A DNA stretch of 64,000 nt from an uncultured bacterium. Lineage in GTDB: Bacteria; Oederibacteriota; Muellerivitia; Muellerivitales; Muellerivitaceae. The stretch lies in assembly GCA_964392085.1 (NCBI GenBank), contig CAYMOV010000005.1:5343-69342 (forward strand), given 5' to 3'. Both the position numbers and the translations under genes were made by a program. The notes under the pieces were generated by a model. That model searched no databases, was not told the origin of the DNA, and was given only the letters and a program-made list of their open reading frames with translations. The first letter of the stretch is position 1; each line of letters starts with the position of its first letter. Below, piece by piece: positions 5,366 through 62,478 of this stretch.

Positions 5366-8300
5366 ATGGCCGACCCCCCCAAACGATCCCACCGCAAAGC
5401 CCTTCGACGGCTGGGGTATGCCCTCCTCTTGTTGGTTGCCCTCTTGGCGGCATTTTTAGGGTTCCTCACCACGCCCCCGGGCGAGAGGCTCCTGAAGGGC
5501 TGGGCCGAGGAATCCCTCTCCTCGGCGCTTCGGACCCGGGTCAAAATCGGGTCCATCGAGACCGACCTCTTGAGCCGCCTGGTCCTCCGGGACGTGCGGT
5601 TGGAAGCGGGCCCACCGGACCACCCCGACCCCTTCGTCCGTTTCTCCGTGGGCCGGGTGGATTACCAGCCCCTCGCCTTCCTGTCGAAACGGTGGTTTGT
5701 GCGCAATGTCCGGGTGGAGGACCTCGACGCGGTGCTCCGGCGCCAGGAGGACGGCACCTGGGAGTGGCCGTTCCTCCGCAAGAGCCCGGGGTCCCCATCC
5801 CAGGCCCCGAAGCCCAAGGGCTCGGGGTTCCAGGTCGACCTCCAAAAGGTGGAGTTGGCCCGTTTCAAGGTCCGGTACGACAATGAGGCCACCGGCCTCC
5901 GGGCCGCGATCGAGGGACCCGGGGGATCCTTGGAGAAAACCGGCGCCGGATGGAAAGCCTCGATGGACCTCACCCAGGTCCGCCTCCAAAACCAACGGGG
6001 GGCCGTGGTGGATGGCCAGGACCAGGGCCGGGTTGAGGCCGTCTGGTCACCGGAGAAGATCGAGTTGGAGCGCCTGGCCCTCACCCTCTTCGGCGGGAAG
6101 CTCTCGGCCCAAGGCACACTCTACCCGGGCGGGGTCATGAGGAAATTCCACCTCGCCCTGGCGGACGCCGACGCGGGGACCTTGGCGGCCTTCGCGCTCG
6201 GGAAAAAAACACCCTTTGAGGGTCGGCTCTCCTTCGACGCCGACCTCGACGGTTTGGTCTCGAAACCCCACAGCCTCACCTCAAGGGGACGCCTCACCCT
6301 GGACGACCAAACCCTCGGCGGTGATCCCCTGTTCACCTTGAACGCCGACTGGTCCCTCGCCCAAGGCCGCTTGGCCCTTTCCGCTTCCCAAGGCCCCAAC
6401 GAGATCCTGCTGAGGGCCAGCTTGGACCGGGCCGACCGGTGGAGCGGGCTTTTCACCGGGTCCATCGCGGATCCCGGGCCGCCGGCCGGCCTCCTGGGGA
6501 TCCCGAACGCCACGGGCCGTTTGGCCGCCACCGGCGACATCCGGGGATCCTTTTCCCGCCCTGAGGCGGACTTGGTCCTGTCGGGCGACAACGTCCGGTT
6601 GGACGGTTTCCCGGTGGACAGCCTGTCCGGCGGCCTCCTCCTCGGGACCGCGGGCGTCACGTTCCGCAAGGTCCAGGTCGACGGCGCCCTCCGTTCCCCC
6701 GATCCCGACCATCCGCTTTTGGGGCTCAAGTCCTGGTCCGGGGGCTTCCGTTACCACGCCGAGTTGGATGGGCCCTTGTCCGGACCCGAAGCCTCCCTGC
6801 GGGTTGATTTCACCCGGCCCGGCTTCGGCGGGATCAAGCTGGACCGGGCGGCCCTGCGGGCCACGATCCACCGGGGTGAACTCAAGCTGGACCTCTTCAA
6901 GGGCCAGCGGGATTTTGTGGTGGCCCAAGCCGTCGGGAGCCACTCCCTGAAAAAACGGACGGGTTCCCTCACGCTCTCCTTCCTGGAGGTCAAGACCAAC
7001 AAACGCAAGGGACGGAACGACGCGGGTTTCGACCGCCTGATCCCGTTGGAGAAGCTGGGGCCCGGCCGGTCGGAAAACCTGGAACTGAAATGGGCCCTCC
7101 AGGACTCCGGGGGCTTCCGTTTGGAAGCCCAAGCCGACAGCCTCAAGCTGGACAAGGTCTGGGCCTTGGCCCCCTCCGCGGCCCAAGCCGAAGGCCTCCT
7201 GGGTGTCCGCTTGGTCCTCCAACGCGAGCCCGGGGTTCCCCATCCCGGCCCGCTTGAGGTCTCCGGGGGGGTCACCCTGAGGGACGGCGCCTGGCAGGCC
7301 CAACGGGACACGGCTCCGGTGGAGAACCTCCAAGCCGTGGTCTTGTTGGATAAGTCCCGGTTGGTCCTCCAGAAGCTCCAGGGAACCGTCCACGGCCTCG
7401 CCTTGGAGCTCAAGGGATCGGCGAACCTACCAGGGTCCCGTTCGGAGAGGAAATGGGGCCTCACGCTCCTGGCGGACCGCCGGGAAGCCGCGACGGCCTC
7501 GGGCACCTTCGCCCCGGATCGGTTGGAACTCCAGGTCGGCCTGGCGAAACTTCCCGCCCAGGCGTTGGAACCCTTCCTCCCTTTCTTTTCCGGCATGGGT
7601 GGGGAACTCACCGGGCGGTTCAAGATCTCGGGAACCCCTTCTTCCCCCCGGTTGAACGGTCCCCTCACCGTGGAGGACCTCTCGTTCTTTCTCCCGATCC
7701 TCAACGCGAAAATCACCCAAGGAAACCTCACGGCGGCGTTCAACGGGCAACGGCTTGACTTGGCGGAATCCAAGCTCCTGTTCAACGGGGGCCCCGTCAC
7801 CCTCCAAGGCGGGTGGGACTGGGGCCAGGGTCAGGAGGATTTCGGGGTCGAGGCGAACTTCGCCAAGGTCAAGGTCGACCTGCCCCACCTCCTGTCCGGG
7901 ACCATCGATACCGGGCGGGCATCCTGGAAATCCTCCGAGGGAGGGTACCTCCTGGAGGGCGACCTGGATCTGGCCTCCGCGAAATGGCAGAAGGACTTCG
8001 CGGTTTCGGAGCCTTCCTCCCCGCCGGACCTGCCGCCTTTCCTGGCCCAAACGCGGTTTTCGGTCCGCTTCCGGGGGACCCATGACGCCTACCTCGACAA
8101 CAACTGGGGACGGATCGAGGTGGACGCCGACGCCGCCCTGGCCGGCACCTGGGCCGCCCCGACCCTGCTGGGCCAGTTCCAGGCCCTGGGCGGCAAGGTC
8201 TTCTACCTCGACCGGAAGTTCAACGTGGCCGAGGGGTCGGCGCAGTTCAACGACGCCACCCAGGTAAACCCCCTTCTTCACCTTTTGGCGGAAACCACCG

Positions 8301-8827
8301 TCCGGTCCTACGGCCTCACGGGAACGCCCTTGGACTACTCCGTCGTCCTGTCCATCGACGGTCCACTGGACCAGATGAGGCTCAACCTCATCTCCGACCC
8401 CGTGCTGGACTCCGCCGACATCGTCTCGCTCCTCACCCTGGGAGCCACCCGCAACCAGATCCTCGTGAGGAACCCCGGGGGGCCCGCCGCCGGGGACCAG
8501 ATCGTCAGCCGGGCGGGGTCCTTCACGACGAACACCCTGGCGGACTATTCCGCCCGGAAGGTCGGGCGGATCATCGGTTTGGAGGACCTCAGCGTGGAGG
8601 GCAACCTCTGGGGGGCCGGGGGCGCGTCCACCACCGATCCACGAATCAGCGCCACCACCCGGGTCAGCGACCGGATCAGCGTGACCTACAGCACTTCAGC
8701 GGGCCGGGACCTCAACCAATCGGTCAAGGTCGGTTATTACCTATCCAACCGGTTCTCCGTGGTCACCCAGGCCGGCCAAACGGGCGCCTCCAGCCTCGAC
8801 CTCAGCTATCGGATGCTCTTCAAATGA
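5366..8827 (+). CDS. tamB: TamB-like translocation and assembly module protein (AsmA-like, DUF490 C-terminus)
   Basis: The ATG at 5366 gives MADPPKRSHRK followed by a single N-terminal TM helix. The roughly 1150-aa body is repetitive and beta-rich. The C-terminus reads GYYLSNRFSVVTQAGQTGASSLDLSYRMLFK, typical of TamB. The stop overlaps the next start as ATGA. Confidence 0.85.
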   Translation: MADPPKRSHRKALRRLGYALLLLVALLAAFLGFLTTPPGERLLKGWAEESLSSALRTRVKIGSIETDLLSRLVLRDVRLEAGPPDHPDPFVRFSVGRVDYQPLAFLSKRWFVRNVRVEDLDAVLRRQEDGTWEWPFLRKSPGSPSQAPKPKGSGFQVDLQKVELARFKVRYDNEATGLRAAIEGPGGSLEKTGAGWKASMDLTQVRLQNQRGAVVDGQDQGRVEAVWSPEKIELERLALTLFGGKLSAQGTLYPGGVMRKFHLALADADAGTLAAFALGKKTPFEGRLSFDADLDGLVSKPHSLTSRGRLTLDDQTLGGDPLFTLNADWSLAQGRLALSASQGPNEILLRASLDRADRWSGLFTGSIADPGPPAGLLGIPNATGRLAATGDIRGSFSRPEADLVLSGDNVRLDGFPVDSLSGGLLLGTAGVTFRKVQVDGALRSPDPDHPLLGLKSWSGGFRYHAELDGPLSGPEASLRVDFTRPGFGGIKLDRAALRATIHRGELKLDLFKGQRDFVVAQAVGSHSLKKRTGSLTLSFLEVKTNKRKGRNDAGFDRLIPLEKLGPGRSENLELKWALQDSGGFRLEAQADSLKLDKVWALAPSAAQAEGLLGVRLVLQREPGVPHPGPLEVSGGVTLRDGAWQAQRDTAPVENLQAVVLLDKSRLVLQKLQGTVHGLALELKGSANLPGSRSERKWGLTLLADRREAATASGTFAPDRLELQVGLAKLPAQALEPFLPFFSGMGGELTGRFKISGTPSSPRLNGPLTVEDLSFFLPILNAKITQGNLTAAFNGQRLDLAESKLLFNGGPVTLQGGWDWGQGQEDFGVEANFAKVKVDLPHLLSGTIDTGRASWKSSEGGYLLEGDLDLASAKWQKDFAVSEPSSPPDLPPFLAQTRFSVRFRGTHDAYLDNNWGRIEVDADAALAGTWAAPTLLGQFQALGGKVFYLDRKFNVAEGSAQFNDATQVNPLLHLLAETTVRSYGLTGTPLDYSVVLSIDGPLDQMRLNLISDPVLDSADIVSLLTLGATRNQILVRNPGGPAAGDQIVSRAGSFTTNTLADYSARKVGRIIGLEDLSVEGNLWGAGGASTTDPRISATTRVSDRISVTYSTSAGRDLNQSVKVGYYLSNRFSVVTQAGQTGASSLDLSYRMLFK

Positions 8828-15378: not shown

Positions 15379-17721
15379 TCAGGACCCCTCGATCACTAAC
15401 ACGCCCCGGGTGAGTTTCTCCGGGCCCTTGCGTACCACGTAATAGTGGATTCCCGGGGCCGCAGGTTTCCCTCCGGGGGATCGACCGTTCCAACGGACCC
15501 ATCCCCCGATTTCCATTTGGGTAAATACGGATTCGCCCGAAACCGTGTAAACGTCCAGTTCGGATCCCGGGGGCATGCACCATGCCTTCAGGGTCCCCCC
15601 AACCGCTTGGGAGGGGTTGTAGGGGTTGGGCCACACGTGAAGCGGTTGGACCGGGGTTGGGCTGGGGGGGATGGGGGTCACCGACCAGGTGGCCGTCGGG
15701 GTGTCCGTCCAGGTCATAGTCCAAGTGGCGGTGGGGGAATCGGTCGGGGTGTCCGAGGGTGAAGGGGTCGGGGTGAGGGTAGGGAAATCATCCACGACGA
15801 TGACCCCAGTTGGAGTGACGGTCCAGGTCGAGGTGAGGAGGGAGGTAAGAGTCGGGGTGAAGGTGGCCGTGGGGGTCGGGCTGGAGGTGGGCGTGGCGGC
15901 ACAGGAACGGACCACGAGGTTATCGAACCGGATCCGATTGATCCCTTGGATGAAATCGGCGTGAAATCCTACGCCCCCGGCCGGAAGGCTCATGTCGGTG
16001 AAATCGAAAAGGAGTGTCTCCCCCGAGCCAAAGTCCACGAAAGTCTGTTGCCGGGAACCCGACACCACCGTCCGGAAGTGGACCCAAGTCCCGGGGGGAT
16101 AAGCGGGGGTGGCCAATCCCGAACCGAAACCGACCCCATCCAGGTATCGGTACCCCTGGGTATCGGAAAACAACACCGCTTGCCAATGGGGGACCAGGTT
16201 CTCCGGGTTGGTGTTCATCAACACGCTGTAATAGTCCGCCACCGTCGGCGAGGTAATCGTCGCGCGGAAGGCCGAGCCGAAATCCCCATAGCCGTTATCC
16301 AGGTCCATCTCAGCGTCGAAATCGATGGTGTAATCCCGGCGGGACCAGCCCAGGAGCGAGTCCCCGGTGGGGGGCGACGTCACCTGTACAACGGGCCGTT
16401 GGTTGACCCCCAAGGGGGCGGACGCTGGGGCGCTGTTCCGGATGACCTGGGCGTTATCCGCGGCCGCGGGGCTTCCGATCGGGACGCCCGTTGCGGCGCC
16501 AAGGTAAGTCACGTTGGGATCGGAATAATAGGGGATATAGGATCCCGGCATGTAGGACATCAATGAAATGAACAACCCCGCCCCGGTGTTGATCTTGTAG
16601 CCGTAGTTATATCCGGACCCCGTGGGGATCCCCGCCGTCCCCCGGTCGTGGTTACAACCGTAGTTGTGGCCCAGTTCATGAGGGAACGCCACATCGGCCC
16701 AGGACGACAACACCACGGTCTGGTCACCCGGCATGTAGCCCACCCCCGCGATGGAGTTGTCGGACCGCCCCAGGAAAAGGCTCGCGTATTGCGCGCCATA
16801 GGTCGCCATCAGGCCGAACACCTCGTCCACATAGCCGTCGCCGTTGGCGGCGAATCGCCCAGGTCCAGGGGCAGGTTGCCCGAATCCGAATAGGGTGTTT
16901 CGGCGCAATAGACCAACCGGTCCTCGAGCCCGACCTGGCTGTTGTGCAGGGCCAAGTTCAGGACTCCCATGGCCAGGTCGATGACGGTCAGGATCCCCGG
17001 GGTCCCACCGGCGTAGGTCCTCGCGGTGGGGGTGTAGAGGATCAGGACTTGGTTGACCTTCAGGTTCTCGGCGTCCGGGCACATGCCGGAGGTGTCCTGT
17101 GGGACGACAGGCGGAAACCCCTCGGGGTTGTCGTAGGCCTCGGGCACGGCGGGCTCCCCCGGCCCCTCCGTTCCGCACTTGAACCGCGCGGACGGATCCT
17201 GGAGGAAGATCCGATGGACGCCTTCCCCCACATACCGGATTTGGAATCGTCCTCTCGTCGGATCAAAGACCGTGGCCGCGATCACCGGCCCCCGGGCGGC
17301 CAGGACCCACCAACCCCCATCCACCCCGTCGAGGGTTCCCGTCCAGACCACGCCTCCCCCGAGGGTCGGCCGCCGAAGGTCGCAGACCGCCCGGTAATCG
17401 GCTCCGACCAGGAGGTTCAGGGCCAGGGGCGGGGCTTCCCGAACGGGGACCAGGCCCGCCAGTTGACCGAGGAATTCGGGGGACACCCGCACGTACCGGG
17501 ATTGGAGGGCGGGGAGGTCAAGGGGCGGGACCTGGGCGGGTGGATCCACCGTGGGGAAAGCGGACGAAGGTGAGGGAGGCAAGGCGCCGGCAAAAAATGG
17601 TTCGCGCCCCGGGGGGGACAAGGGCCCACCCCAGGATCCCAACCACCGCAAACCATACCCGTCGTTTCGGTTCCATAGGTCCACTACACCATCCTACAGA
17701 ATAGGCATTCGGGGCATACAC
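15379..17721 (-). pseudogene. secreted metzincin (reprolysin/M12B-like) zinc metalloprotease with PT-rich linker and C-terminal sorting domain, split over three reading frames
   Basis: Frame C (17518..17721) encodes a plausible signal peptide, MEPKRRVWFAVVGILGWALVPPGA. Frame A (16809..17684) encodes the prodomain and the start of the catalytic domain, VLILYTPTARTYAGG...VYCAETPYSDSGN. Frame B (15379..~16860) continues ANGDGYVDEVFGLMATYGAQ...AFPHELGHNYGCNHD (HExxHxxGxxH), then SLMSY, a PT-rich linker, and VWPNPYNP...LVIEGS. The frame switches fall at a GGGG/CCCC run near 16850-16871 and a C4G7 run near 17600-17620. Confidence 0.6.
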
Positions 17722-17776
17722 TTGACCCCATCATACCCCGCGCCCCCCCATTCCGCCCCGTATGTAATGCATATTA

Positions 17777-17814
17777 AAAAAAAGGCCCGGCGCCCCCAAG
17801 GGGACGCCGGACCT
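17777..17814 (-). terminator. Rho-independent terminator of the 17835..19160 gene
   Basis: On the minus strand: ggtccggcgtcccc-ttg-ggggcgccgggcc followed by T8. Confidence 0.65.
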
Positions 17815-17834: not shown

Positions 17835-19160
17835 TCAGCGGGCTTCGGCTTGCCCATCCGGATAGAAGAGTTTGTAGCTCCCGTCGCCCAGCAGCACCAT
17901 GACCTCGGTGATCCGGCCGTTGGCGTTCTCGGTGAACCGCGCGTCCGTGGCGCCGGACACCAGGAAGACCGGCGCGAAGGCCGGGGTGGCGCTCATGTCG
18001 TAGAGGAAGGCGTCGTTGGAGGCGCCGTAGATCTTGATGGCCCGGGTATTGTCGTGGCTCCAGAAAACCGTCCCGGAAGCCGAGCCCGAGGGGGCGGGGG
18101 CCGTCGCGGAATCCGGCTGGGTCACCGGATCAGCCGCGTCGCTGGCCGGGTAGTATTCCTTGTCCCGGTAGACATACACCACGTCCACCCGGGAGGGATC
18201 CTGCCACCACCAGTAGCCGTCGTTCCAGTAGCACCAACGGTCGAAGCTGTCGTCGTACCACCAATACCGGTCGCCGTAATAGCGGGTCCAGAAGCATTGG
18301 TCCCCGAGGTACCAGCCGTACCAGTTGTAACCCCACGGGTCGTTATAGTGGCAAAACCGGTTGCCGCCGTAATCGTGCCAGTAGTAGCGCCCCCGGACGT
18401 TTTCATCCCGGTTGTACCTTCCCACCTGGCCCAAGACCAAGCGGTTGTTCATGTAGACGTTCATGGACTTGGCGGCCGGCGGTCCGCCGGCGACGCGGGA
18501 CATCAGCGCCCTTCCGTCGGGTCCCCGTTGGGGCACCGCGACCCTCGATTCGGCCCGGGGGGTGCTCAACAGGTGGTCGCGCTCCCGGATCGGCGAGGGC
18601 CTTGGAACGCCCTGCAGGTGCGCCCGGTTCTGTTGATAGGTCCCAGGGTGGACGCCCGCCGGACGGCGGTATGAGTTGTCCCGTACCTGGTTCGACCGGT
18701 TTCCGGTCCTCGCGTCGTTCCCCAAACGAACCCGTGGGTTTTCCACGGGACGGGATTGCTGTCCGTTGTTCCCGGGACGGGCCTGCTGCCCGTTGGCCGC
18801 CGGGCGGACCCTTTGTCCCTGGACCCCGGCGTTTTGGCCGCCATTCGGGGCGACCCGGCCGATCAGGCCCGCGGGTTGTTCGCGTTGGGGCGCGGCCCTT
18901 TCCGTCCGCGATTGGGCGGCTCGGTGGGCCCGGACGGGCTGGTCCCCGGAAACCGTCCTGTCCACCCGGGTGTCGTCCCGGGTGGTCGACACGGTGTCGC
19001 GCGCCGGGGCATCCCCACGGTCATCGCTAGCCGAAGCCCGGTCGGGTCGGTCCACCCGGTCCGGACGGCTGTCTCCCGGGTCGTCCCGCCTGGCCAAAGC
19101 CGGAAGCGCGAGGGCAAACGCGAAAAAGGTGATGGCAAACAATTTGAGGTTCTGATTCAT
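17835..19160 (-). CDS. secreted hypothetical protein with an Arg/Asp/Gln-rich disordered region and an extremely Trp/Tyr-rich core
   Basis: Signal peptide MNQNLKLFAITFFAFALALPALA. Roughly 200 aa of low complexity follow. The aromatic core reads YYWHDYGGNRFCHYNDPWGYNWYGWYLGDQCFWTRYYGDRYWWYDDSFDRWCYWNDGYWWWQD and is followed by a ~100-aa beta-rich C-terminal domain. Confidence 0.7.
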   Translation of the reverse strand: MNQNLKLFAITFFAFALALPALARRDDPGDSRPDRVDRPDRASASDDRGDAPARDTVSTTRDDTRVDRTVSGDQPVRAHRAAQSRTERAAPQREQPAGLIGRVAPNGGQNAGVQGQRVRPAANGQQARPGNNGQQSRPVENPRVRLGNDARTGNRSNQVRDNSYRRPAGVHPGTYQQNRAHLQGVPRPSPIRERDHLLSTPRAESRVAVPQRGPDGRALMSRVAGGPPAAKSMNVYMNNRLVLGQVGRYNRDENVRGRYYWHDYGGNRFCHYNDPWGYNWYGWYLGDQCFWTRYYGDRYWWYDDSFDRWCYWNDGYWWWQDPSRVDVVYVYRDKEYYPASDAADPVTQPDSATAPAPSGSASGTVFWSHDNTRAIKIYGASNDAFLYDMSATPAFAPVFLVSGATDARFTENANGRITEVMVLLGDGSYKLFYPDGQAEAR

Positions 19161-19356
19161 GTCTATTCTCCCGATCCAATGGACTGCCTATAAGTTTAGA
19201 CGACAGGAAGCGCCTACGGTTCCAGTAAAAACGACTGAATAACCCCGCGCTTCCCTCCCCACGGTGATTTGACGAGGGCAAAGGACGGCGGGTGTCGCCC
19301 GGGAATGGCGCTAAAAACCGGTTATACCAACCACAAAGGGGGTTTTCATCCTCCGG

Positions 19357-19629
19357 CTAATGGCCCGACCCTGGGCTGAAAACGGGCGGGCGCGCTGGGG
19401 TCGAGACCGGGAAGACCGTATGGGGTTCGAAATGGAGATCCGATAACCGAACGACCAACCGGTAATCCCCCGGATGGGCCAGGTCCTCCACGAAGGCCCT
19501 GCGCCAAAGGTCGATGTCCAGGACCCGCACCTTCATCCCGCGAAACAAGGCCGTTTGCCCGACGAACCAGCGGCGCAATTCCTCCCGTCGAACCTGCGGG
19601 AGGGGTTCTTGGATATCCGGTTGGGCCAT
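19357..19629 (-). CDS. hypothetical protein
   Basis: About 90 aa, downstream of the PQQ-repeat gene on the same strand. The ATG at 19629 has a GAGGTG RBS, and a GTG at 19638 is also possible. No recognisable motif. Confidence 0.35.
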   Translation of the reverse strand: MAQPDIQEPLPQVRREELRRWFVGQTALFRGMKVRVLDIDLWRRAFVEDLAHPGDYRLVVRLSDLHFEPHTVFPVSTPARPPVFSPGSGH

Positions 19630-19707
19630 GGGAGACACCTCAGGCCGCCCATTCTACTCCCGGCCACGGCCTGACAAAAGATGGTTCTAGAAGGCCTTTT
19701 GTCGGGT

Positions 19708-22700
19708 TTATCGGAGCAGGACCAAAGGCAGGACATACCGGCGGACTGGAGTCGTCAACACCAGGTAATACAGGCCGTCCGAGAGCGGCGCGCCCCGCCG
19801 GTCCCGGGGATCCAAGGGGACGGACCATTCCCCCGCCTTGATATTCGTAAAGGACCACTCCGCGATTTTCCGGTAGGCCGTCGTGAAGACCGCGACGCGC
19901 ACCCAAGCCTGGGGACTTTCCCAGTTGGCCGAAAGGGTCAGGGGTCCCGTTCCCCGCCAGGGGTTTGGAAAGAGGACCGGGGGCTCCGGACCCACGCCCG
20001 CCGTCCCGGTCGGGGTCGGCGACGGGGACCCGGTCCAGGTCGGAGTGGCCGTCACGGAAGCCGTCGGCGTGCCCATAGGACTCGGTGACGGGGACGCAGT
20101 CTCGGTCGCGCTCGGTGTAACGGTCCAGGTGGACGACGGTGTTTCCGTCCACGAGGCCGTCGGGGTGGCGGTCCGGGTCGGCGGGGGCGGCGTTGCCGAA
20201 GGCGTAGGGCTTGAGGTGAGGGACGCCGTCCCGGTTGGAGAAGGCGTTGAAGTGTCGACCGGGGGCGCCGTCGGGCTAGGCGTCAACGTTGACGAATGGG
20301 TTGGGGTTGTTGTTGTAGTCGGCGTCCCACTCGCCGTCCCAGTCGGCGTTAAGGAAGCTGTCCCGCTCGCCGTGGGGCTTGGGGACGGGGACGCAGTCTC
20401 GGTCGCGCTTGGAGTCCGGGAGGGCGACGCCGTCGGCGTCCCGCTTGGGCTCGGGGAGGCGGTTGAACTGGCGGTCGCTGAAGCCGTGGGCGTAGCCGAC
20501 GGGGTCGGCGTAGTCGAATCCGTCGAGGTGCGGGTCGGCGAGGCGGTGGCGGTACTGGTCGCCGTCGCCGAAGCCGTGGCCGTCCGGGTCGGGGTCGCCG
20601 TAAACGTCGCGGATGGTGTCGGGGTGGCCGTGAGGGTCGAGGAATAGGTGGCCGTGAAGGTGGCTGTCCCAGTCGGCGTTGATGAAGCTGTCCCGCTCGC
20701 CGTGGGGCTCGGGGACGGTGACGGAGTCACGGTCGCACTTGGAGTCTGGGAGGGCGACGCCGTCGGCGTCCCGCTTGGGGTGGAGGTCCTGGTCGCCGAG
20801 GCCGTGGCCGTCCAGGTTCGGGTCGCCGTCAACGTCGCCGAGGAGGTCGGGGTGGCGGTGGGAGTCGAGGAAAAGGTAGCCGTGAAAGTACCCGTCCCAG
20901 TCGGCGTTAACGAAGCCGTCCCACTCGCCGTGGGGCTCGGGGACGGTGACGGAGTCACGGTCGCGCTTGGAGTCCGGGAGGGCGACGCCGTCGGCGTCCC
21001 GCTTGGGGTCGGGGACCGGGTGGACGTCGCCGTGGCCGTCAAGGTAGCCGTGGAGGTTCTGGTCGGGGTGGCGGTGGGCGTAGACGTCCAGGTCGGCGTG
21101 GCCCCCCCGATCAAGCCGTACACCACCAGCTGGCCGGCGGCCGGGACATAGACCTTCCCGTTGACGATGCTGGGCGGCGTGAACTTCACGTTGGCCGCCA
21201 CGGCGCTGTCCCGGGCCGCGTTTTGGGAGCTGTTGTAGAGCTCGGTGGCCAGGTTCGTGGCGTCGTAGGCGTGCAGGACCGCGGGGGTGCCGGGTTGGAT
21301 CGCCCAAACGATGCCGTTCGTCGTTCCGTTGGAGGACACGCTGGGAACGCAACCCGGGTAGGCGTAGGTGGCCGAGGTCTGGGAGGAGGCCGTGGTGTTG
21401 TAAAGGCCGTTCGCCAGGCTGAAGGCCCGGAGCACCTGCCCCGACATGCCCCAATAGACGAAGCCGTTGAAGATCGCGGGGTTGGTGAATCCCGCGTTGG
21501 TGGCGGCCGTCCCGACGTGGAATTCCTGGACGTCGTTGTCCGTCGCGGCGTTGTAATGTCCCATGTTGTCCCGGTCCACCAGGTACACCTCCCCCGTCTT
21601 GGCGCCTCCTGTCATGAGGTGGGGATGGGCCGCGCTGCCGTAGGAATCCGGCAAAAGCACGCCTCCGGTGGAGCCCAAGTCCTGGTCGGTGTTGCTGAGG
21701 GTGCCCTGGTTCGAGGGCGTGAAGTAGTCCGCCGGGGTGAGGGCCGTGACCCCGGCCGTCAGTTTGAGGAAGCTGTCGCCGTAGTCCCGCCCCCCCGTGT
21801 TGGCGTCGAAAGTGCCGTTCGCGGTGAGGACAAACAGGTTTCCTGAGGCATCCACCATCGGGGCCCCGCCGCTGTTCCAGAGGGACGCCTCGCTCCCGTC
21901 GGGCGCCACGTTGTAGACGATGGTCTGTTGGCTGATGTCCGAGGCGTTGTAGCCGATGATCCAGCCCTGGTAGGTGCCCCAGTTGTTCAGGTCACAGTGG
22001 GAGGTCCAGGAGGTGTAGATCACCCCGTTGGACTCGACCAATCCGCATCGTTCCTTGTAGGCCCGTGCATTGAAGGTATCCGTCGTCCCTCCCTGGCCCG
22101 TCCCCGGCACGCTGGCCTGGACCGTGGTGGGGCCGTTCGCCGCCTCGGCCCCGGAGGAGAGGTCGAGCGCGTGCAGGACCTGGTAGAACTGCGTCACGGG
22201 GCCCGCGGTCACCTGCTTGATCATCCCCACCAGGTAGATCTTCCCCTTCGCCGGGTCGATATAAGGCGTGTCGGTGATGCCGATCTCCGGGGTGATCTGG
22301 GTGCAATTCGCCACGTCGGCCAGGGCCACCGTGGTGACCCCGGCGGCCGCGTTCAGGAAACTGACCTGCCAAAGCGGCGCTTGGGGGGAATCGGCGTCGA
22401 AGGCGTAGACGCTGTCGTGCTCCGTGCAGACATAGACCACGTTGTGGTTGCCCTTGCCCAAAATCGCCTGGTTGGGGACGTAAAGGGGTTGGCCGTAAAT
22501 CTGGCCGTCGACCGCGTCGGAATACAGCTTGCCGAAGGTCGCTTGGTTGACGACCGACGTCGAGAGGATCGTCTCGTTGGGGTTGAGTCCCGTGCGGGAA
22601 TCGTCGTTATGGTAGGACAATAGGGGGGTCTGGCCCCAGGCGGCGCCCACGAGGGTGACCGAGAGGGCGAGGATCAAGTTGTGGGCAAGCCGCGCAGGAC

Positions 22701-22716
22701 GGAATAAGGGCGCCAA
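19708..22716 (-). CDS. secreted PQQ-like beta-propeller protein with triplicated Pro/Thr/Ser-rich repeats and a C-terminal sorting (T9SS/Por-type) domain
   Basis: Signal peptide MAPLFRPARLAHNLILALSVTLVGAAWG. The ~490-aa N-terminal domain has repeated PQQ-type blades (VYAFDADS, GKIYLVG, GNLFVLT, GEVYLVD, GFVYWGMSG, GKVYVPAAGQ). Three ~48-aa repeats TPSGTPTASPSRTPSATVTPSPSPSPTASGTASLTPTGTG follow. The C-terminus reads VLFPNPWRGTGPLTLS...LYYLVLTT. Confidence 0.85.
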   Translation of the reverse strand: MAPLFRPARLAHNLILALSVTLVGAAWGQTPLLSYHNDDSRTGLNPNETILSTSVVNQATFGKLYSDAVDGQIYGQPLYVPNQAILGKGNHNVVYVCTEHDSVYAFDADSPQAPLWQVSFLNAAAGVTTVALADVANCTQITPEIGITDTPYIDPAKGKIYLVGMIKQVTAGPVTQFYQVLHALDLSSGAEAANGPTTVQASVPGTGQGGTTDTFNARAYKERCGLVESNGVIYTSWTSHCDLNNWGTYQGWIIGYNASDISQQTIVYNVAPDGSEASLWNSGGAPMVDASGNLFVLTANGTFDANTGGRDYGDSFLKLTAGVTALTPADYFTPSNQGTLSNTDQDLGSTGGVLLPDSYGSAAHPHLMTGGAKTGEVYLVDRDNMGHYNAATDNDVQEFHVGTAATNAGFTNPAIFNGFVYWGMSGQVLRAFSLANGLYNTTASSQTSATYAYPGCVPSVSSNGTTNGIVWAIQPGTPAVLHAYDATNLATELYNSSQNAARDSAVAANVKFTPPSIVNGKVYVPAAGQLVVYGLIGGATPTWTSTPTATPTRTSTATLTATATSTRSPTPSGTPTASPSRTPSATVTPSPSPSPTASGTASLTPTGTGTFTATFSSTPTATPTSSATLTATRTWTATASATRTSTPSGTPTASPSQTPSATVTPSPSPSPTASGTASSTPTGTATFTATYSSTLTATPTPSATFTATPTRTATASATATSTATASPTRTSTDSTTPTPSATPTASATASSTASPSPSGTPTASPSRTPSATETASPSPSPTASGTASLTPTGTASGTPTTTTTPTHSSTLTPSPTAPPVDTSTPSPTGTASLTSSPTPSATPPPPTRTATPTASWTETPSSTWTVTPSATETASPSPSPMGTPTASVTATPTWTGSPSPTPTGTAGVGPEPPVLFPNPWRGTGPLTLSANWESPQAWVRVAVFTTAYRKIAEWSFTNIKAGEWSVPLDPRDRRGAPLSDGLYYLVLTTPVRRYVLPLVLLR
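20040..21120. repeat. tandem DNA repeats encoding the PT-rich linker of the 1002-aa gene
   Basis: Near-identical blocks at about 20348, 20688 and 20918, for example cgccgtggggctcggggacggtgacggagtcacggtcgc...gggagggcgacgccgtcggcgtcccgcttgggg. They generate the long alternate-frame ORFs in the track. Confidence 0.6.
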
Positions 22717-23851: not shown

Positions 23852-25576
23852 TTAAAACCATTTTCCGAGCCACTTCTTGATCTGGGATTCCTTGTCCTGG
23901 CCCCCGGCGTTCCCGCGGTTGTCCGGCCGGCGGTTGCGGTCGTTGGGGAACCGGTTGCCCCGGTTGTCGTCGCGCGAGGAGGAGTTCCCGCCCCGACCGG
24001 CGCCCGGTCCCCTGCGGTTCGCGTCCTGGCCCGGGCGGTTTCGGTCACCGCCTTGTCCCGGGCGGTGTCCCGGGTTAGTCCCGGACGGCCTGCCGGAGTG
24101 GGGAGGGGCGTTGCGGTCGCGGCCGCGGAAAGGTCCCTGGTTCTGTCGGTGGGTCTCAAAACCCGCACGGTTCCCGTCCACCTCGTGGGGAGCGGCGCCG
24201 GCCGGAGCGCTGGAACCCGGCCGGGGGTTGCGGTCCCGGCCCTGGTTCGAACCCTGCCGGTGTCCTTGCGGTTGTCCCTGGTGCGGTTGGGAAGGACGCC
24301 CTTGGGGCCTGCCCTGGGACTGGCCTTCCGGACGCGAGGGACCCCTTGACGAATTCTGGGAACGTCCTTGGGGACGTTGTCCCTGGGAGTGGCGCTGGTT
24401 CGGCTGGGAGGAACCCGGCCGGAAGGCCGGCTGGGGATTGATCGCGGCGGCGTGGTCCGTGAAATGGGAGGGCAGGTTGGTGATGGCCACGCGGCCTTCG
24501 CCCAGTTCCTTCAGGATGTCCTTCCATTGACCGGCGTCCTCGGGCGTCAGGAAGGTCAGGGAATCCCCCTCGGCCCCCGCGCGCGCCGTCCGGCCGATCC
24601 GGTGCAGGTAGTCCTCGGGGTTCTGGGGCAGGTCGAAGTTGATGACGTGGGCGATGTGCTGGATGTCGAGCCCGCGGGCCGCGATGTCGGTGGCCACGAG
24701 GATGCGGCTCGACCCGTTCTTGAACTGCTCCAACGCCATGCGGCGCTGGCCCTGGGTGCGGCCGCCGTGGATTCGGACGGCCGACAGCCCCTTGTCCTTC
24801 AGCTTCTGGAGGGTGCGGTCCACGCGGTGTTGGGTGCGGGCGAAGAGCAGGACGGACCCCTCACGGGCCTGGAGCTCGGCGATCAGGTCGTCGAACTTGC
24901 GGCCCTGGCTGGTGTTCATGACCTTCTGGCGGATCTTCTCCACGGCCCGGGACTCGCCGCCCACGGCCACCCGCACCGGCGAGCGCAGGTACTGGTGGGC
25001 CAAGGACTGGATGTCCGGCGGGATCGTGGCGGAGAACATCAAGGTCTGGCGGTCATGGGGCAGTTTGACGCGGATCTTGTTGAGCTGGGGCGCGAAGCCC
25101 ATGTCCAGCATCCGGTCCGCCTCATCCAGCACCAGGAAACCGGTGCGGGACAGGTCCAGGGTGCGGCGTTCCATGTGGTCGATGATCCGGCCGGGCGTCC
25201 CGATGATGAGCCGGGTACCGCGCTTGAGGGCGTCCACCTGGGCGCCCATTCCCATGCCGCCGATCAGGAGGGCGGAATTCAGGTCGCCCCGGTTGCCGGC
25301 CAATTGGCGGAGCACTTCGCGCACCTGGTCCGCCAGTTCGCGGGTGGGAGTGAGGATGAGGGCCGTCTGGCCCGGGTGGGCGGCGAGGTAGCTCAACAGG
25401 GGGATGCCGAAGGCGGCGGTCTTGCCCGAGCCGGTTTCGGCGGAGGCCACGACGTCCTTGCCCTCGAGGCCGGGGGGGATGGACTGGGCCTGGATGGGGG
25501 TAGGTTTCTCAAACTTCATCTTCACCAGCGACTCGTGCAAAAAGGCGGGTAACGCCAACTCCTGGAAGCTTTCCAT
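23852..25576 (-). CDS. rhlE: DEAD-box ATP-dependent RNA helicase with ~200-aa RG/Q/N-rich disordered C-terminal tail
   Basis: Q-motif, AETGSGKT (Walker A), DEAD, SAT and HRIGRTAR motifs in order. The tail is RGG/QG-rich and ends KKWLGKWF. Confidence 0.9.
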   Translation of the reverse strand: MESFQELALPAFLHESLVKMKFEKPTPIQAQSIPPGLEGKDVVASAETGSGKTAAFGIPLLSYLAAHPGQTALILTPTRELADQVREVLRQLAGNRGDLNSALLIGGMGMGAQVDALKRGTRLIIGTPGRIIDHMERRTLDLSRTGFLVLDEADRMLDMGFAPQLNKIRVKLPHDRQTLMFSATIPPDIQSLAHQYLRSPVRVAVGGESRAVEKIRQKVMNTSQGRKFDDLIAELQAREGSVLLFARTQHRVDRTLQKLKDKGLSAVRIHGGRTQGQRRMALEQFKNGSSRILVATDIAARGLDIQHIAHVINFDLPQNPEDYLHRIGRTARAGAEGDSLTFLTPEDAGQWKDILKELGEGRVAITNLPSHFTDHAAAINPQPAFRPGSSQPNQRHSQGQRPQGRSQNSSRGPSRPEGQSQGRPQGRPSQPHQGQPQGHRQGSNQGRDRNPRPGSSAPAGAAPHEVDGNRAGFETHRQNQGPFRGRDRNAPPHSGRPSGTNPGHRPGQGGDRNRPGQDANRRGPGAGRGGNSSSRDDNRGNRFPNDRNRRPDNRGNAGGQDKESQIKKWLGKWF

Positions 25577-58365: not shown

Positions 58366-59658
58366 TTAGAATATATTTACCTTATGAGAGTTCCCTTCCC
58401 GCTTTCCGGCCACTCCGTAATAATTCAACAGATATCGCATGGTAAGGCCCTGAACCAAAACGGAGAAGAGAACAACCCCGTAAGTGGCTGCCAGGATTAA
58501 ATCCTTTTCCGGCAGGTCCGGCAAGGAAAGGGCCATTGCGATCGAAAGCCCACCCCTCAAACCTCCCCACGTGAGAATAGAAACGATTCCTCTTCGGCTT
58601 TCGTTCCATTGGATGAATCGAATGGGAAGGATGACCGAAAGAAACCTTGAAGCCAAAACAACGGGTACGGCCCCCAGGCCTATCAGCAGGTTGCGCCCAC
58701 CTACAAAAGTGTCAAAAACCTTCAGACCGATTAAAAGGAATAACACAGCATTCAAGATGTCGTCCATCATTCCCCAAAAAGCATCAAAATGCTCCGCGGT
58801 TTTTTGACTCATGGCATATCGCTTGCCGTGGTTGCCGATCAAAAGCCCCGCCACCACCACCGCGATGGGGCCGGATACACCCAACCGGAAAGAAAGGGAG
58901 TACATAAACATGACCAAAGCCAACGTGATCAAAAGTTCTAACTGGTGATAATTGATGCTTTTGAGCATCCTGAACGCCATGTAGCCCAAACCTAATCCTA
59001 AGAGAACACCACCAACCACTTCCCGCAGGAACAACCAAAACACATAGAGAGGGGATAAGGAAAGGGCAGATCCTTCCCCCCCGATTCCCGCCAAAGAGGT
59101 TAGGGCGAAAAAAACGACGACTCCCACACCATCATTGAAAAGGGATTCACCGGCGATGGTGGCCTCCAATTCCTTCGGGGCCCTTAGTTCTTTTAGCAGT
59201 CCCAAGACCGCGATTGGATCAGTGGGTGAAATAAGCGCCCCAAATACCATGCAAACCAAAAGGGAGACCTCCATTCCCGAGGCTTTGAGAAGCGCATAAC
59301 TCAGTCCCCCTACCATTGCCGTTGAAAAGAGGACACCTAGGGTCGCCAATACGAGGATGGTCCATCGGTTGGCCTTCAAGTCCTTGAATTTGACGTGGAG
59401 GGCCCCCGCAAACAAAAGAAAACAAAGCATGCCATGCATTAAAACCCGGTTGAAGTCGATGCCCGCCAGGAAAGTATTCAGGCCCGCCTTCAGGTGCCAC
59501 TGGGGTAGAAGCCAGCCGGTCGCCAACATGAAGAGAGAACTGAAGAGGGCAATGCTCATGATGCCTGTGGTGGCCGGAAGCCGTAAGAACCGGTAATTGA
59601 GGTAGCCGAACGCCGCCGCCAGGGCGATCAAAACAGCCGCGATATCGAAAACAGTCAT
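58366..59658 (-). CDS. cation:proton antiporter (CPA1, NhaP-type Na+/H+ exchanger)
   Basis: 430 aa with about 12 TM helices and the TDP/ND motif region (ISPTDPIAVLGLL...GESLFNDGVGVV). Confidence 0.9.
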   Translation of the reverse strand: MTVFDIAAVLIALAAAFGYLNYRFLRLPATTGIMSIALFSSLFMLATGWLLPQWHLKAGLNTFLAGIDFNRVLMHGMLCFLLFAGALHVKFKDLKANRWTILVLATLGVLFSTAMVGGLSYALLKASGMEVSLLVCMVFGALISPTDPIAVLGLLKELRAPKELEATIAGESLFNDGVGVVVFFALTSLAGIGGEGSALSLSPLYVFWLFLREVVGGVLLGLGLGYMAFRMLKSINYHQLELLITLALVMFMYSLSFRLGVSGPIAVVVAGLLIGNHGKRYAMSQKTAEHFDAFWGMMDDILNAVLFLLIGLKVFDTFVGGRNLLIGLGAVPVVLASRFLSVILPIRFIQWNESRRGIVSILTWGGLRGGLSIAMALSLPDLPEKDLILAATYGVVLFSVLVQGLTMRYLLNYYGVAGKREGNSHKVNIF

Positions 59659-59659
59659 T

Positions 59660-61099
59660 TTAAGAATCCCCAGCTCTTCTTCGGCTTAACGATTCCAACC
59701 GGACAAGAGCCGGCTTAGTTGTCCCGGGTTTTCCCTCCGAGCTTTTTACGTGGAAAGCAAGGTGACGATACAAAGGGACCGGCATGATCAGTTTTCCCAC
59801 CCCTTGCGCCAGGAAAGCGCCGATCATGAAGGGAATCAAAAGCATGCTTTGATCCGTCATTTCCATAATAATGATGACTGCCGTCAATGGAGCCTGAACC
59901 ACTCCTGAAAAGAAAGCCACCATTCCAATCAATGCGCAAGCCTTTAATCCCGCCACTTGAAATAACTGGCCGGTGGTAAAACCCAATCCGGCTCCAATGG
60001 ACAAACAAGGGGAAAATATCCCCCCCGCCATGCCGGACAAATAGGAAAAGGCAGTGGTGAGCAGTTTTTCAGGGAAATAAAGGGATGGCAGGGTTCCCTG
60101 TGCGTTATCCATAAAACGCCGGGTCACTTCATAGCCCGATCCCGCCGTGTCACCGTTGGTAAGAACGTTGATCAAAGCGCAAATAATTCCACACACGAGG
60201 GCTTTTCCCCACCAGGACGAAGGAAGAATTCGGTATTTAGGGTGAGTTAGTATCTTTGAAAAAACACCTCCAAATATCCCGCCCAAGAGACCGAGTAGTA
60301 TGGCGATTGGAATCAGGCTTAATGCCGATCCCTTTACAACAGGGTGGCCAAAGTAAAGGTAATTGCCTCCGATGGCTTGTGCGGTAATTCCACCAACAAT
60401 GACGGCCAACATGACTATTCGCTTGAACTGGGCGAAGGAATGTTCGGCGATCTCCTCTAACGCGAAGGTAATGCCCGCCAATGGGGTGTTAAAAGCCGCC
60501 GAAATCCCAGCTGATGCACCCGCAATAAGGTAGGACTGAAGATCCAAAGTGCCGAAATAGCGGCGTGCATGCCGTGCCGTAAAGGCAAAAACTGAAGAAG
60601 CCACTTGCACCGTCGGGCCTTCCCGGCCAATAGAAGCCCCGCCCAGGATTCCGACAACACTTGATATGATTTTCCAAGCGGCTGTTTTAATGGACACCAA
60701 CGGCCCTGTCATTTCACCGCGTTTTCCGTTTTCCACCCCATCAATCGCCTGAAGCACTTGAGGTATGCCGCTCCCTTTGGCTTCAGGCGCAAATTTCACT
60801 ACCAGCCATGTCGCCATAAGGAACAGGCACGGCCCAAGCAGAAGCGCCAAATAAGGATGGCTCTGTAATCCTTTATTAAATACGCCCTGGGTCAAAGTTA
60901 TAAGTTCCGCATAGAAATAGGCGATGATACCCACCACGACAGCCGCCAACAATAATGAAGCCTGCATCGTCGTCTTAGGGTGGATGGGGTTCAATTCCCT
61001 AGCACCGGCAGAAATACCCTTTCCAATATGTGAAACCGACTTCGATAATTCGTCCTTGGCTTTCCTCAGATTCATCTTCCTTTGATTCTTAGGCGCCAC
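59660..61099 (-). CDS. ClC-family chloride channel / H+-Cl- antiporter
   Basis: It has the GSGIPQ, GREGPTVQ and GxFxP selectivity-filter motifs and about 10-12 TM helices. Confidence 0.9.
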   Translation of the reverse strand: MAPKNQRKMNLRKAKDELSKSVSHIGKGISAGARELNPIHPKTTMQASLLLAAVVVGIIAYFYAELITLTQGVFNKGLQSHPYLALLLGPCLFLMATWLVVKFAPEAKGSGIPQVLQAIDGVENGKRGEMTGPLVSIKTAAWKIISSVVGILGGASIGREGPTVQVASSVFAFTARHARRYFGTLDLQSYLIAGASAGISAAFNTPLAGITFALEEIAEHSFAQFKRIVMLAVIVGGITAQAIGGNYLYFGHPVVKGSALSLIPIAILLGLLGGIFGGVFSKILTHPKYRILPSSWWGKALVCGIICALINVLTNGDTAGSGYEVTRRFMDNAQGTLPSLYFPEKLLTTAFSYLSGMAGGIFSPCLSIGAGLGFTTGQLFQVAGLKACALIGMVAFFSGVVQAPLTAVIIIMEMTDQSMLLIPFMIGAFLAQGVGKLIMPVPLYRHLAFHVKSSEGKPGTTKPALVRLESLSRRRAGDS

Positions 61100-61593: not shown

Positions 61594-62478
61594 CTATGCC
61601 TTGACCGCCTCAAACCCGGATATAACGTCGAAAAGTTCCTCGTCGATGGTCATCTGGCGTTGCCGTCGGAACTTTCCGTTGAGGTCGACCAACAGGTCCC
61701 CAATGTTTTTTTCGGCCCGTTGCATCGCGGCCAACCGGCTCGCGTTCTCGCTCGCGAGGGACTCGGCGCAGGCCCGGAACAGGGAAACGAAAAGGTACTC
61801 CCGCAGGAACGCCCGCAAAGCCCCAGAGACGTCCCCCACGACATCGGGCGGCGACTTCGTCGGCCAGGGAAGTCCCTCCAGGTCCCGCCTCCAGGTTTCA
61901 TCCAAGGGAAGCAGCCGCTGGTGGACGGGCTCGTAAACCGCCCCGGTGGAGGGACGGTTGTAGAAAAGGTGGAGTTCAGGGGCCGGAACCCGGTCGCTCC
62001 CCGTTCCCTGTTCCACGAGGATCCGGCCGACCAGCGGCGCGATGGTCCCGACGGAGTTCGGCACATGATGGAGACCCACCGGCCGCAGGCCTTCGTCCGT
62101 CAGGCGGGCGTGAACCCTTTCCCCGATAGCCCACAACTCGGGTGGGCCCTTCAAGGCCGCCAACGTCCCGGCCGCGAACCGGGATACCCGCTCGTTGAAG
62201 GATCCCACCAGACCCTGGTCCGAACCAAACACGATGGCGCGCACCGGCGCCCCAGTCTTCCTCGGCTTCCAAGCGGGAAATTTGCGGCCCCTACCTTGTT
62301 GCCGGAGGAGGAGGCCCAGCCCCAGTTCCACCCCGCGGGTGTAGTCCTTGGTCGCCCGTACCGATTTCTCGTATTGCCCAATGCTGGAGGCGGCCATCGC
62401 CTTCATCGCCCGGACGACCGATCCAAGGTCACCGGCCGAACGGATCTTCCGCTTCAAGACCGCCGTGGAATCGCTCAT
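61594..62478 (-). CDS. atpG: F1F0 ATP synthase gamma subunit
   Basis: N-terminal [25 protein letters not shown] and C-terminal [26 protein letters not shown] match the gamma-subunit ends. The start overlaps the atpA stop as ATGA. Confidence 0.85.

Follow-up and report, generated by a model that had tools for sequence, protein, structure and literature searches.

The stretch of DNA analyzed here, in the following called the window, comprises 64,000 nucleotides of contig CAYMOV010000005.1 (positions 5,343 to 69,342 of assembly GCA_964392085.1) from an uncultured bacterium. On its reverse strand an open reading frame (ORF) at positions 17835 to 19160, which starts with ATG and comprises 441 codons and a stop codon, encodes a predicted secreted protein with a core of exceptional tryptophan and tyrosine content. 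This aromatic protein is a member of a new, so far undescribed family of domains, possibly with a new fold, and its gene lies behind a putative promoter of the type recognized by extracytoplasmic function (ECF) sigma factors. An identical protein is encoded, within the same gene order, in an independent assembly of the European Nucleotide Archive (ENA). An earlier note on this DNA had credited the gene with its own terminator, and a strong 14-bp stem with a T-run was indeed found 3' of the stop codon, at 17814-17783 (minus strand). An Rfam scan of the 64-kb window revealed no RNA family at threshold.

The most conspicuous part of the protein is a segment of 63 residues (aa 259-321, positions 18198 to 18386) with 13 tyrosines, 12 tryptophans and 3 phenylalanines, which amounts to 44.4% W+Y+F, or 47.6% when histidine is included. 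The segment is identical to the string which the earlier note had quoted as a core of about 40% aromatic residues. No other 63-aa stretch in the window's 295 stop-free frames (>=100 aa) is as aromatic; the runner-up reaches 0.27 and the median of the per-frame maxima, calculated over 63 aa, is 0.095. At the N-terminus, the sequence MNQNLKLFAITFFAFALALPALA, followed by RR, consists by inspection of a basic n-region, a hydrophobic core and an AxA site. Divided into MNQNLK-LFAITFFAFALALP-ALA in front of RR, it has, again by inspection, the layout of a substrate of Sec and signal peptidase I (SPase I), i.e., a basic n-region, an h-region of 10-17 residues and small residues at positions -3 and -1 (AxA). 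Similar n-, h- and c-regions with AxA-type sites are present in the relatives, and of the 112 members whose N-terminus is long, 83 passed a hydrophobic-run test. Secretion by means of a signal peptide, as proposed earlier, is therefore predicted for the window protein and its relatives from the Sec-type layout. The following basic arm is a common property of the family: it has a median length of about 140 aa, contains 12% arginine, 11% glycine and 10% proline, and is net positive in 95% of the members (median +9). The description of this region as about 200 residues of low complexity is overstated and applies only to aa ~25-185, whereas the ~70 residues from aa ~186 to 257 were modelled to fold together with the aromatic strands.

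A word-indexed search returned 17 relatives with 34-57% identity, all of them unnamed or annotated as 'hypothetical'. By an exhaustive profile search over 1.84 billion cluster representatives (clusters at 50% identity), 370 clusters were identified at E<=1e-3, 196 of these at E<=1e-30. In the alignment of the 17 relatives the conserved positions are the aromatic ones. Invariant columns are W261, H262, H271, D274, W280, Y281, G282, W283, Y284, W291, W300 and Y302, and further R308, W309, W317, P322, Y331 and Y336. The 81-column strand region of 162 family representatives contains on average 38% W+Y+F (range 25-50%), with 15.7% W and 18% Y, and many of its W, Y and H columns are invariant. The aromatic core is present in orthologues and paralogues, so that it represents neither a chance feature nor a lineage-specific artefact. 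Of 143 sequences, 124 contain a triad of one glutamate and two histidines (Glu253-His262-His271) and 125 a D303-R308 pair. Disulfides as part of the fold were also considered and rejected, as the three cysteines of the core are not conserved and the members carry 0-7 cysteines.

In a scan of one genome per GTDB species, 103 loci were detected, nearly all of them in metagenome-assembled genomes (MAGs) labelled candidate division FCPU426. The other loci belong to MAGs labelled Elusimicrobia or Firestonebacteria, and some of the labels are vague or probably wrong. Many MAGs carry two to five family copies, at times in tandem. The family is found mainly in candidate-phylum bacteria of soil and peat. 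The literature on FCPU426 consists of community surveys and one paper on cellulose-degrading Goldbacteria; this phylum, one member of which degrades cellulose, has been argued to include the 16S cluster of FCPU426 (PMC7031533). Clustering of the ORFs of 82 fetched loci (80 GTDB loci) revealed no conserved neighbour or operon partner of the family genes. In one orthologue group the gene lies in a conserved block directly 3' of an acetyl-CoA synthetase gene (660 aa), near genes for a glycerate kinase, MutY and a dienelactone-hydrolase-like protein (L003-L006, L009, L021, L022, L050, L054, L064, L068 and L081). This looks like mere housekeeping synteny and not like a functional operon.

The window protein gave zero matches at E<=10 against Pfam and NCBIfam. 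For 18 relatives no consistent Pfam match was obtained, the scattered single ones having E>=0.012. The ten longest members matched only Extensin_1, by low complexity and under the cut-off, and carry no fused domain. Searches of PDB sequences with the single sequence and with the family profile yielded no credible match, and a search of the literature for the strings WYGWY, WWWQDP and WWWYDP was negative. The best Foldseek matches of the predicted structure had E=0.2 with TM<=0.22 in PDB and E=0.11 in BFVD. Neither homology searches nor structure comparison thus pointed clearly to a known domain family. This is in agreement with the earlier note, in which no described family had been recognized, and applies to Pfam, NCBIfam, PDB sequences and Foldseek (PDB, BFVD) alike.

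The structure was predicted by AlphaFold2 (AF2) in two runs. The first (aa 225-441, 18 sequences) reached a predicted local distance difference test score (pLDDT) of 80 and showed nine short strands connected by 2-residue turns and a confident C-terminal module. The second (aa 176-345, 143 sequences) reached a pLDDT of 92.4 and a predicted TM score (pTM) of 0.87. In this run, the block-mean pLDDT is 90-97 over most of the ~70 residues preceding the strands, and these residues are therefore regarded as part of the same domain, which spans ~aa 186-340. They form a strap with the conserved motif I..R..IL.T....S.I..P..G..G, visible in the family alignment, followed by two helices. Mean-field direct coupling analysis (DCA) was applied to the 143-sequence alignment and is noisy, with ~142 effective sequences. 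It recovered the hairpin registers W261-C270, G282-W291 and R298-N313. The helix residues Y236, V242 and Q245 couple to W283, T292, W301 and C289 (pairs including Y236-W283, Y236-T292 and V242-W301), while the strap is represented by the pairs L219-C289 and P188-W318. Combined with the strand parity, these couplings would put the helices and the strap on opposite faces of the sheet. The simplest reading of the model is that the aromatic residues constitute the hydrophobic core of a three-layer domain of strap, sheet and helices, in which they replace aliphatic residues. A sheet covered on both faces suggests that the aromatic residues serve as a structural core and do not present an open platform for binding. 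In the DCA, E253 was coupled to H262 as well as to H271, and the Glu253-His262-His271 cluster could bind a metal or a ligand or could form a set of buried hydrogen bonds.

A profile self-comparison of the family revealed an internal repeat, in which the consensus WTRYYGGRWWWYDP aligns with WCYWNDGYWWWQDP at an offset of 18 residues with a score of 43.5. The maximum after column shuffling was 18.7 +/- 4.3 (highest value seen 32), and this is the only significant internal repeat pair. The sheet therefore seems to have arisen at least partly via duplication of a hairpin.

Several known systems resemble the domain in single aspects. Designed Trp zippers and the WW domain share short antiparallel strands, tight turns and cross-strand stabilization by Trp and Tyr, and the last hairpin of the window protein, W-x(18)-W-Q-D-P, echoes the WW signature W...W-x-x-P. 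This is an analogy and not a membership: a WW domain has ~35 aa, whereas the domain described here has ~155 aa with nine strands, a strap and two helices and offers no pointer to binding of proline peptides. The choline- or cell-wall-binding repeats of CW_binding_1 (PF01473) are likewise found in secreted bacterial proteins and consist of aromatic beta-hairpin units of ~18-20 aa. They form an open solenoid with ligand sites between the repeats, whereas a single meander with 2-residue turns, packed on strap and helices, is predicted here; only two clear repeat copies exist, and neither the window protein nor the 18 relatives matched PF01473. A next-neighbour antiparallel meander is shared with OspA, PliC, NlpE-N and lipocalin-like lipoproteins, which were among the top Foldseek rows with non-significant matches (E>=1e-3, TM 0.15-0.39 on target length). 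Unlike the single-layer sheets of the OspA type, the modelled sheet is covered on both sides by N-terminal elements of the same protein.

Two candidate homologies were rejected. Hemopexin was matched by phmmer at aa 294-337 (E=0.016). The match was not reproduced by the family profile, Pfam or fold comparison and is regarded as compositional; hemopexin-like repeats are also W/Y/D/G-rich beta repeats, whereas the four-bladed hemopexin propellers differ from the model (TM ~0.2, rmsd >8 Å). A WW/DUF2510-like domain was presumed behind the pattern WWWYDP...RW.YW.DG.WWWQDP. When the family core was compared by hhalign with 15 WW sequences, the probability was 0.4-0.6%, and the PDB profile search returned no WW chain at E<=10. 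The spacing of 18-19 in W300/W301...W319-Q-D-P322 is below the canonical 20-22 of WW domains, and the pattern is expected from the Trp-rich composition alone.

Behind the aromatic domain and a variable linker, the protein ends in a module which the earlier note had described as a folded-looking domain and which was modelled with a block-mean pLDDT of ~76-96. Of 165 members, 146 carry a single copy of it and some carry two (P0094, P0120, P0136), and P0158 has three copies but no aromatic domain. Judged from these arrangements the module can be regarded as a unit of its own; it matched no known family and nothing in PDB. The members P0004, P0009, P0012, P0120, P0136 and P0158 share a conserved C-terminal tail of the type ...(L/F)xxLxxGxx(W/F)-COOH, e.g., LDALKVGFVW, FKALESGAPNW and YKTLKSGVRW, which is absent from the window protein. 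By analogy, this tail with its terminal aromatic residue resembles a sorting or recognition signal.

The best clue to the function, which is absent from the earlier note, is a family-specific promoter motif of the ECF type read from the upstream sequences. The heptamer CGTCTAA precedes 25 of 74 family genes (expected 0.8). When the upstream regions were aligned on it, the bipartite motif tG(A/G)AAC(T/C), 15-17 nt, (A/G)CGTC(T/C)AA appeared. The bipartite motif (GAAAC-N16-CGTCTAA type) was found within 150 nt upstream of 17 of 74 family genes compared with 1 of 784 other genes (Fisher p=2e-18), and CGTC[TC]AA alone upstream of 30 of 74 compared with 23 of 784 (p=4e-21). With a position weight matrix (PWM) of the family, 29 of 74 family genes scored above the 99th percentile of the other genes. 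The window promoter reaches 16.8 bits on this matrix, the 99th percentile of the non-family genes being 12.05, and it is the only match to [GA]AAC-N15-18-CGTCYA[AT] on both strands of the 64-kb window. In the family the spacer mostly has 16-17 nt and the end of the -10 box usually lies 42-61 nt from the start codon. AAC at -35 and CGT at -10 are hallmarks of ECF promoters (PMC8103513), and CGTC is a common feature of their -10 boxes (PMC3397946). The window copy contains both the AAC of the -35 box and the CGT(C) of the -10 box.

The few genes outside the family which lie behind the motif encode exported proteins. At locus L024 the motif (7171-7198, plus strand) precedes the gene of an LTXXQ/Metal_resist (Spy/CpxP/ZraP-like) periplasmic protein (PF07813, 44 bits), which also matches Metal_resist PF13801. 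At locus L023 it is located upstream of a gene (7800-8324, minus strand) for a Gly/Tyr-rich secreted DUF6515 protein, and a third gene is possibly TolC-like. The LTXXQ and DUF6515 genes are candidate members of a common regulon. Like the aromatic protein, the Spy/CpxP/ZraP (LTXXQ) proteins are small, exported and non-enzymatic, and the LTXXQ gene of a related genome lies behind the same ECF-type promoter motif, so that the two may belong to one regulon and act under similar physiological conditions. The LTXXQ proteins are all-alpha, whereas the aromatic protein is beta-rich with a disordered arm, and the two have no relation in sequence or fold; the link is purely regulatory and comes from one locus.

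Table 1: Features of the aromatic-protein gene and of its predicted product (positions in the window)
Feature	Position	Strand	Remarks
-35 box GGAACC	19218..19223	-	ECF-sigma-type promoter; read from sequence
-10 box CGTCTAA	19196..19202	-	15 nt 3' of -35 box; 35 nt 5' of ATG
Ribosome-binding site GGGAG	19168..19172	-	7 nt 5' of ATG; read from sequence
Coding sequence	17835..19160	-	441 aa + stop; same as database protein P0018
Sec-type signal peptide	19089..19160	-	aa 1-24; probable cleavage after ALA24; by inspection
Basic disordered arm	18606..19088	-	aa 25-185; R 17%, A 11%, G 11%, D 10%, Q 9%, P 9%; net charge +9
N-terminal strap + helical hairpin	18405..18605	-	strap aa 186-229, hairpin aa 230-252 of aromatic domain
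Glu253-His262-His271 triad span	18348..18404	-	codons 18402-18404, 18375-18377, 18348-18350
Nine-strand Trp/Tyr beta-meander	18147..18389	-	aa 258-338; 40% W+Y+F, 6% I/L/V/M; strands from two AF2 models
18-aa hairpin repeat, first copy	18249..18290	-	aa 291-304, WTRYYGDRYWWYDD
18-aa hairpin repeat, second copy	18195..18236	-	aa 309-322, WCYWNDGYWWWQDP
Variable P/A/S/D-rich linker	18075..18140	-	aa 341-362; pLDDT 55-57; length varies across alignments
C-terminal ~75-aa all-beta module	17850..18074	-	aa 363-437; 7 strands; block-mean pLDDT ~76-96
Intrinsic terminator	17773..17814	-	14-bp stem (11 GC pairs), 4-nt loop, T-run; after stop codon

The gene had been placed between two secreted enzymes with C-terminal domains. 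This is correct for the downstream neighbour, which is recognizable as an M12B reprolysin-like enzyme with the motif HELGHNYGCNH, whereas the upstream neighbour is not recognizable as an enzyme; the matches of the C-terminal domains of both neighbours (FlgD_ig, CHU_C) are under the Pfam cut-offs. The upstream gene (19708-22716, minus strand) encodes a secreted protein of 1002 aa with an N-terminal domain of ~560 aa, for which no family and no PDB sequence match was found, a Thr/Ser/Pro-rich linker of ~350 aa, in which TPTxSPSxTPSAT units recur, and a C-terminal domain with weak similarity to FlgD_ig (E=0.0016, under the cut-off). From these sequence comparisons the 1002-aa protein cannot be called an enzyme. 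Between this gene and the promoter of the aromatic-protein gene lies an ORF of 93 aa without a family match (19357-19638, minus strand), which corresponds to a gene call of 90 aa in the ENA assembly.

The M12B metalloprotease gene (15379-17684, minus strand) consists of two overlapping ORFs in different frames. The ORF at 16809-17684 encodes the N-terminal part (291 aa) and the ORF at 15379-17178 a product of 599 aa, which contains HELGHNYGCNH and the CHU_C/FlgD-like C-terminal domain. The gene looks as if it were split by a frameshift near 16830-16900. Since the same 291-aa call is present in the independent ENA assembly, this may be a true pseudogene or a programmed shift and not a sequencing error. 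Elsewhere in the window, a region of low GC content (58366-61099, minus strand; GC 0.51-0.52 compared with ~0.64 elsewhere) carries genes for a Na+/H+ antiporter-like (430 aa) and a ClC chloride-channel-like protein (479 aa), both named by eye from their translations. This island may comprise horizontally acquired genes for ion or acid homeostasis. A DEAD-box helicase (23852-25576, minus strand) has a disordered, R/G/N/Q/P-rich C-terminal tail of ~200 aa and an F-type ATPase alpha-like subunit (62475-63995, minus strand) a disordered P/K/E-rich repeat tail of ~110 aa; long tails of low complexity appear to be frequent in this genome.

Taken as a whole, the observations on the aromatic protein are best explained, although we put this forward only tentatively, by a Sec-exported, non-enzymatic envelope protein which is probably stress-induced, belongs to a family mainly of FCPU426, Elusimicrobia and Firestonebacteria and is encoded by a gene that forms a transcription unit by itself, between an ECF-sigma-type promoter and a terminator. 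In this scheme an alternative sigma factor of the ECF type would transcribe the gene from GGAACC-N15-CGTCTAA, probably under envelope stress; both the sigma factor and the stimulus are assumed here. The pre-protein would be exported by Sec and, according to the sequence pattern, cleaved after Ala24. The R/G/P-rich basic arm of ~160 aa may act as an electrostatic tether to anionic polymers of the envelope or as a spacer. In the following domain of ~155 aa, the Trp/Tyr meander of nine strands would be clamped between the strap and the helical hairpin, as indicated by the model (pLDDT 92) and coevolution, and the Glu-His-His cluster at the junction of helix and hairpin is the best candidate for a functional site. 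The ~75-aa beta module would be attached by a flexible linker and can apparently be duplicated in paralogues, and the protein seems to have given rise to several divergent paralogues within single genomes. Since neither a catalytic motif nor homology to an enzyme could be detected in the aromatic protein, a non-enzymatic binding or protective role in the periplasm or at the cell surface is most likely.

Several points weigh against this explanation. No cognate gene for a sigma or anti-sigma factor is present in the 64-kb window. Pairs of ECF sigma and anti-sigma factors are usually autoregulated from the motif they recognize, and the family motif was absent from the three ECF genes near L002, L018 and L065. 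About 60% of the family genes have no recognizable motif copy. ECF sigma factors also govern unrelated functions like iron uptake and glycan utilization, and the term envelope stress derives here from the class of the promoter and from a single co-regulated LTXXQ gene. The burial of the aromatic residues, finally, is deduced from the noisy DCA (~142 effective sequences) and from confidence values. A more far-reaching version appears doubtful to us, namely that the ~155-aa domain is a new fold (an 'aromatic sandwich', i.e., an extended natural Trp zipper) and the signature product of an unrecognized ECF envelope-stress regulon of FCPU426, Elusimicrobia and Firestonebacteria, with Glu-His-His as ligand or metal site.

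For the role of the protein the earlier note had considered carbohydrate or polyphenol binding, adhesion and amyloid-like assembly. A lectin- or carbohydrate-binding module (CBM)-like protein, in which exposed Trp/Tyr platforms stack on sugars or phenolics of plant, peat or the own cell wall, would agree with an aromatic-rich, secreted and non-enzymatic protein with conserved Asp, Arg, His and Gln beside the aromatic residues, with a host lineage tied to cellulose degradation (PMC7031533) and with weak Foldseek rows including fucose lectins and a chitin-binding domain (TM<=0.25). We nevertheless regard it as unlikely, as no significant CBM or lectin match was obtained in Pfam, PDB sequence or Foldseek searches, no fusion of the domain with a glycoside hydrolase occurs, and conserved adjacency to carbohydrate-active enzymes, or to any other neighbour, is lacking. 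Nearly all aromatic residues on both faces of the sheet are conserved and coupled to the strap and helices of the same domain, which is the pattern of a core and not of a binding platform of 3-4 residues; a small site is still compatible with the DCA. No positive evidence was gained for carbohydrate or polyphenol binding, for adhesion or for amyloid-like assembly, and the covered sheet argues against a large exposed aromatic surface. Self-assembly into a matrix, adhesive or amyloid-like material, by stacking of sheets between molecules or by cation-pi binding of the domain to the Arg-rich arms of neighbouring molecules, seems highly improbable. The combination of a basic R/G/P-rich arm with an acidic Trp/Tyr-rich domain, the multiple paralogues, the edge strands of the meander, which could pair between molecules, and the weak match of the first AF2 model to OspA, a single-layer beta-sheet protein, are in its favour, whereas AF2 predicts a compact, closed and monomeric domain (pTM 0.87). 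The curli Csg and Fap amyloid systems are characterized by Q/N-rich repeats and adjacent secretion or nucleator genes. Here, two clear 18-aa repeats take the place of long imperfect Q/N repeats of the curli/Fap type, and no genes for amyloid secretion, nucleation or other amyloid-type accessory functions were found in the window or in the 82 related loci.

A periplasmic metal-binding or metal-stress protein, in which Glu253-His262-His271 and the His-rich arms of some paralogues bind metal within a stress regulon, is a live alternative in view of the triad and of the co-regulated Metal_resist-type gene, if a rather improbable one. The triad is present in most of the 143 sequences and its glutamate coevolves with both histidines, one gene that shares the promoter motif has matches to Metal_resist (PF13801) and LTXXQ, and several paralogues have H/R/G-rich mature N-termini. 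The triad can equally be explained as a buried hydrogen-bond network for indole and phenol groups, the arm of the window protein is almost free of histidine, and neither PDB sequence searches nor Foldseek indicated similarity to a known metalloprotein. The trivial explanation of a spurious ORF or a lineage-specific low-complexity expansion comes to mind because DNA of high GC content yields many long spurious ORFs and the N-terminal third of the protein is of low complexity. It is refuted by hundreds of homologues with position-specific conservation, by the high-confidence structure prediction, by the ribosome-binding site, promoter motif and terminator of the gene and by the identical gene in an independent assembly.

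Uncharacterized protein families number in the thousands in metagenomes, and many of them occur in candidate phyla. Provided that the model is correct, the aromatic protein has a natural hydrophobic core that consists almost wholly of Trp and Tyr (~40% aromatic and 6% aliphatic residues). To our knowledge, such an extreme composition is otherwise familiar mainly from designed Trp-zipper peptides, and the domain would then be of use in studies of protein folding, in design and in spectroscopy. FCPU426, Elusimicrobia and Firestonebacteria have few or no cultured members, and the family would offer a first starting point for work on the biology of the envelope and on regulation by ECF sigma factors in these bacteria. 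It supplies a promoter motif, target genes in multiple copies and at least one co-regulated Spy/CpxP-like gene. With this motif and set of targets, the regulon could therefore be mapped in existing MAGs and in metatranscriptomes of peat and soil.

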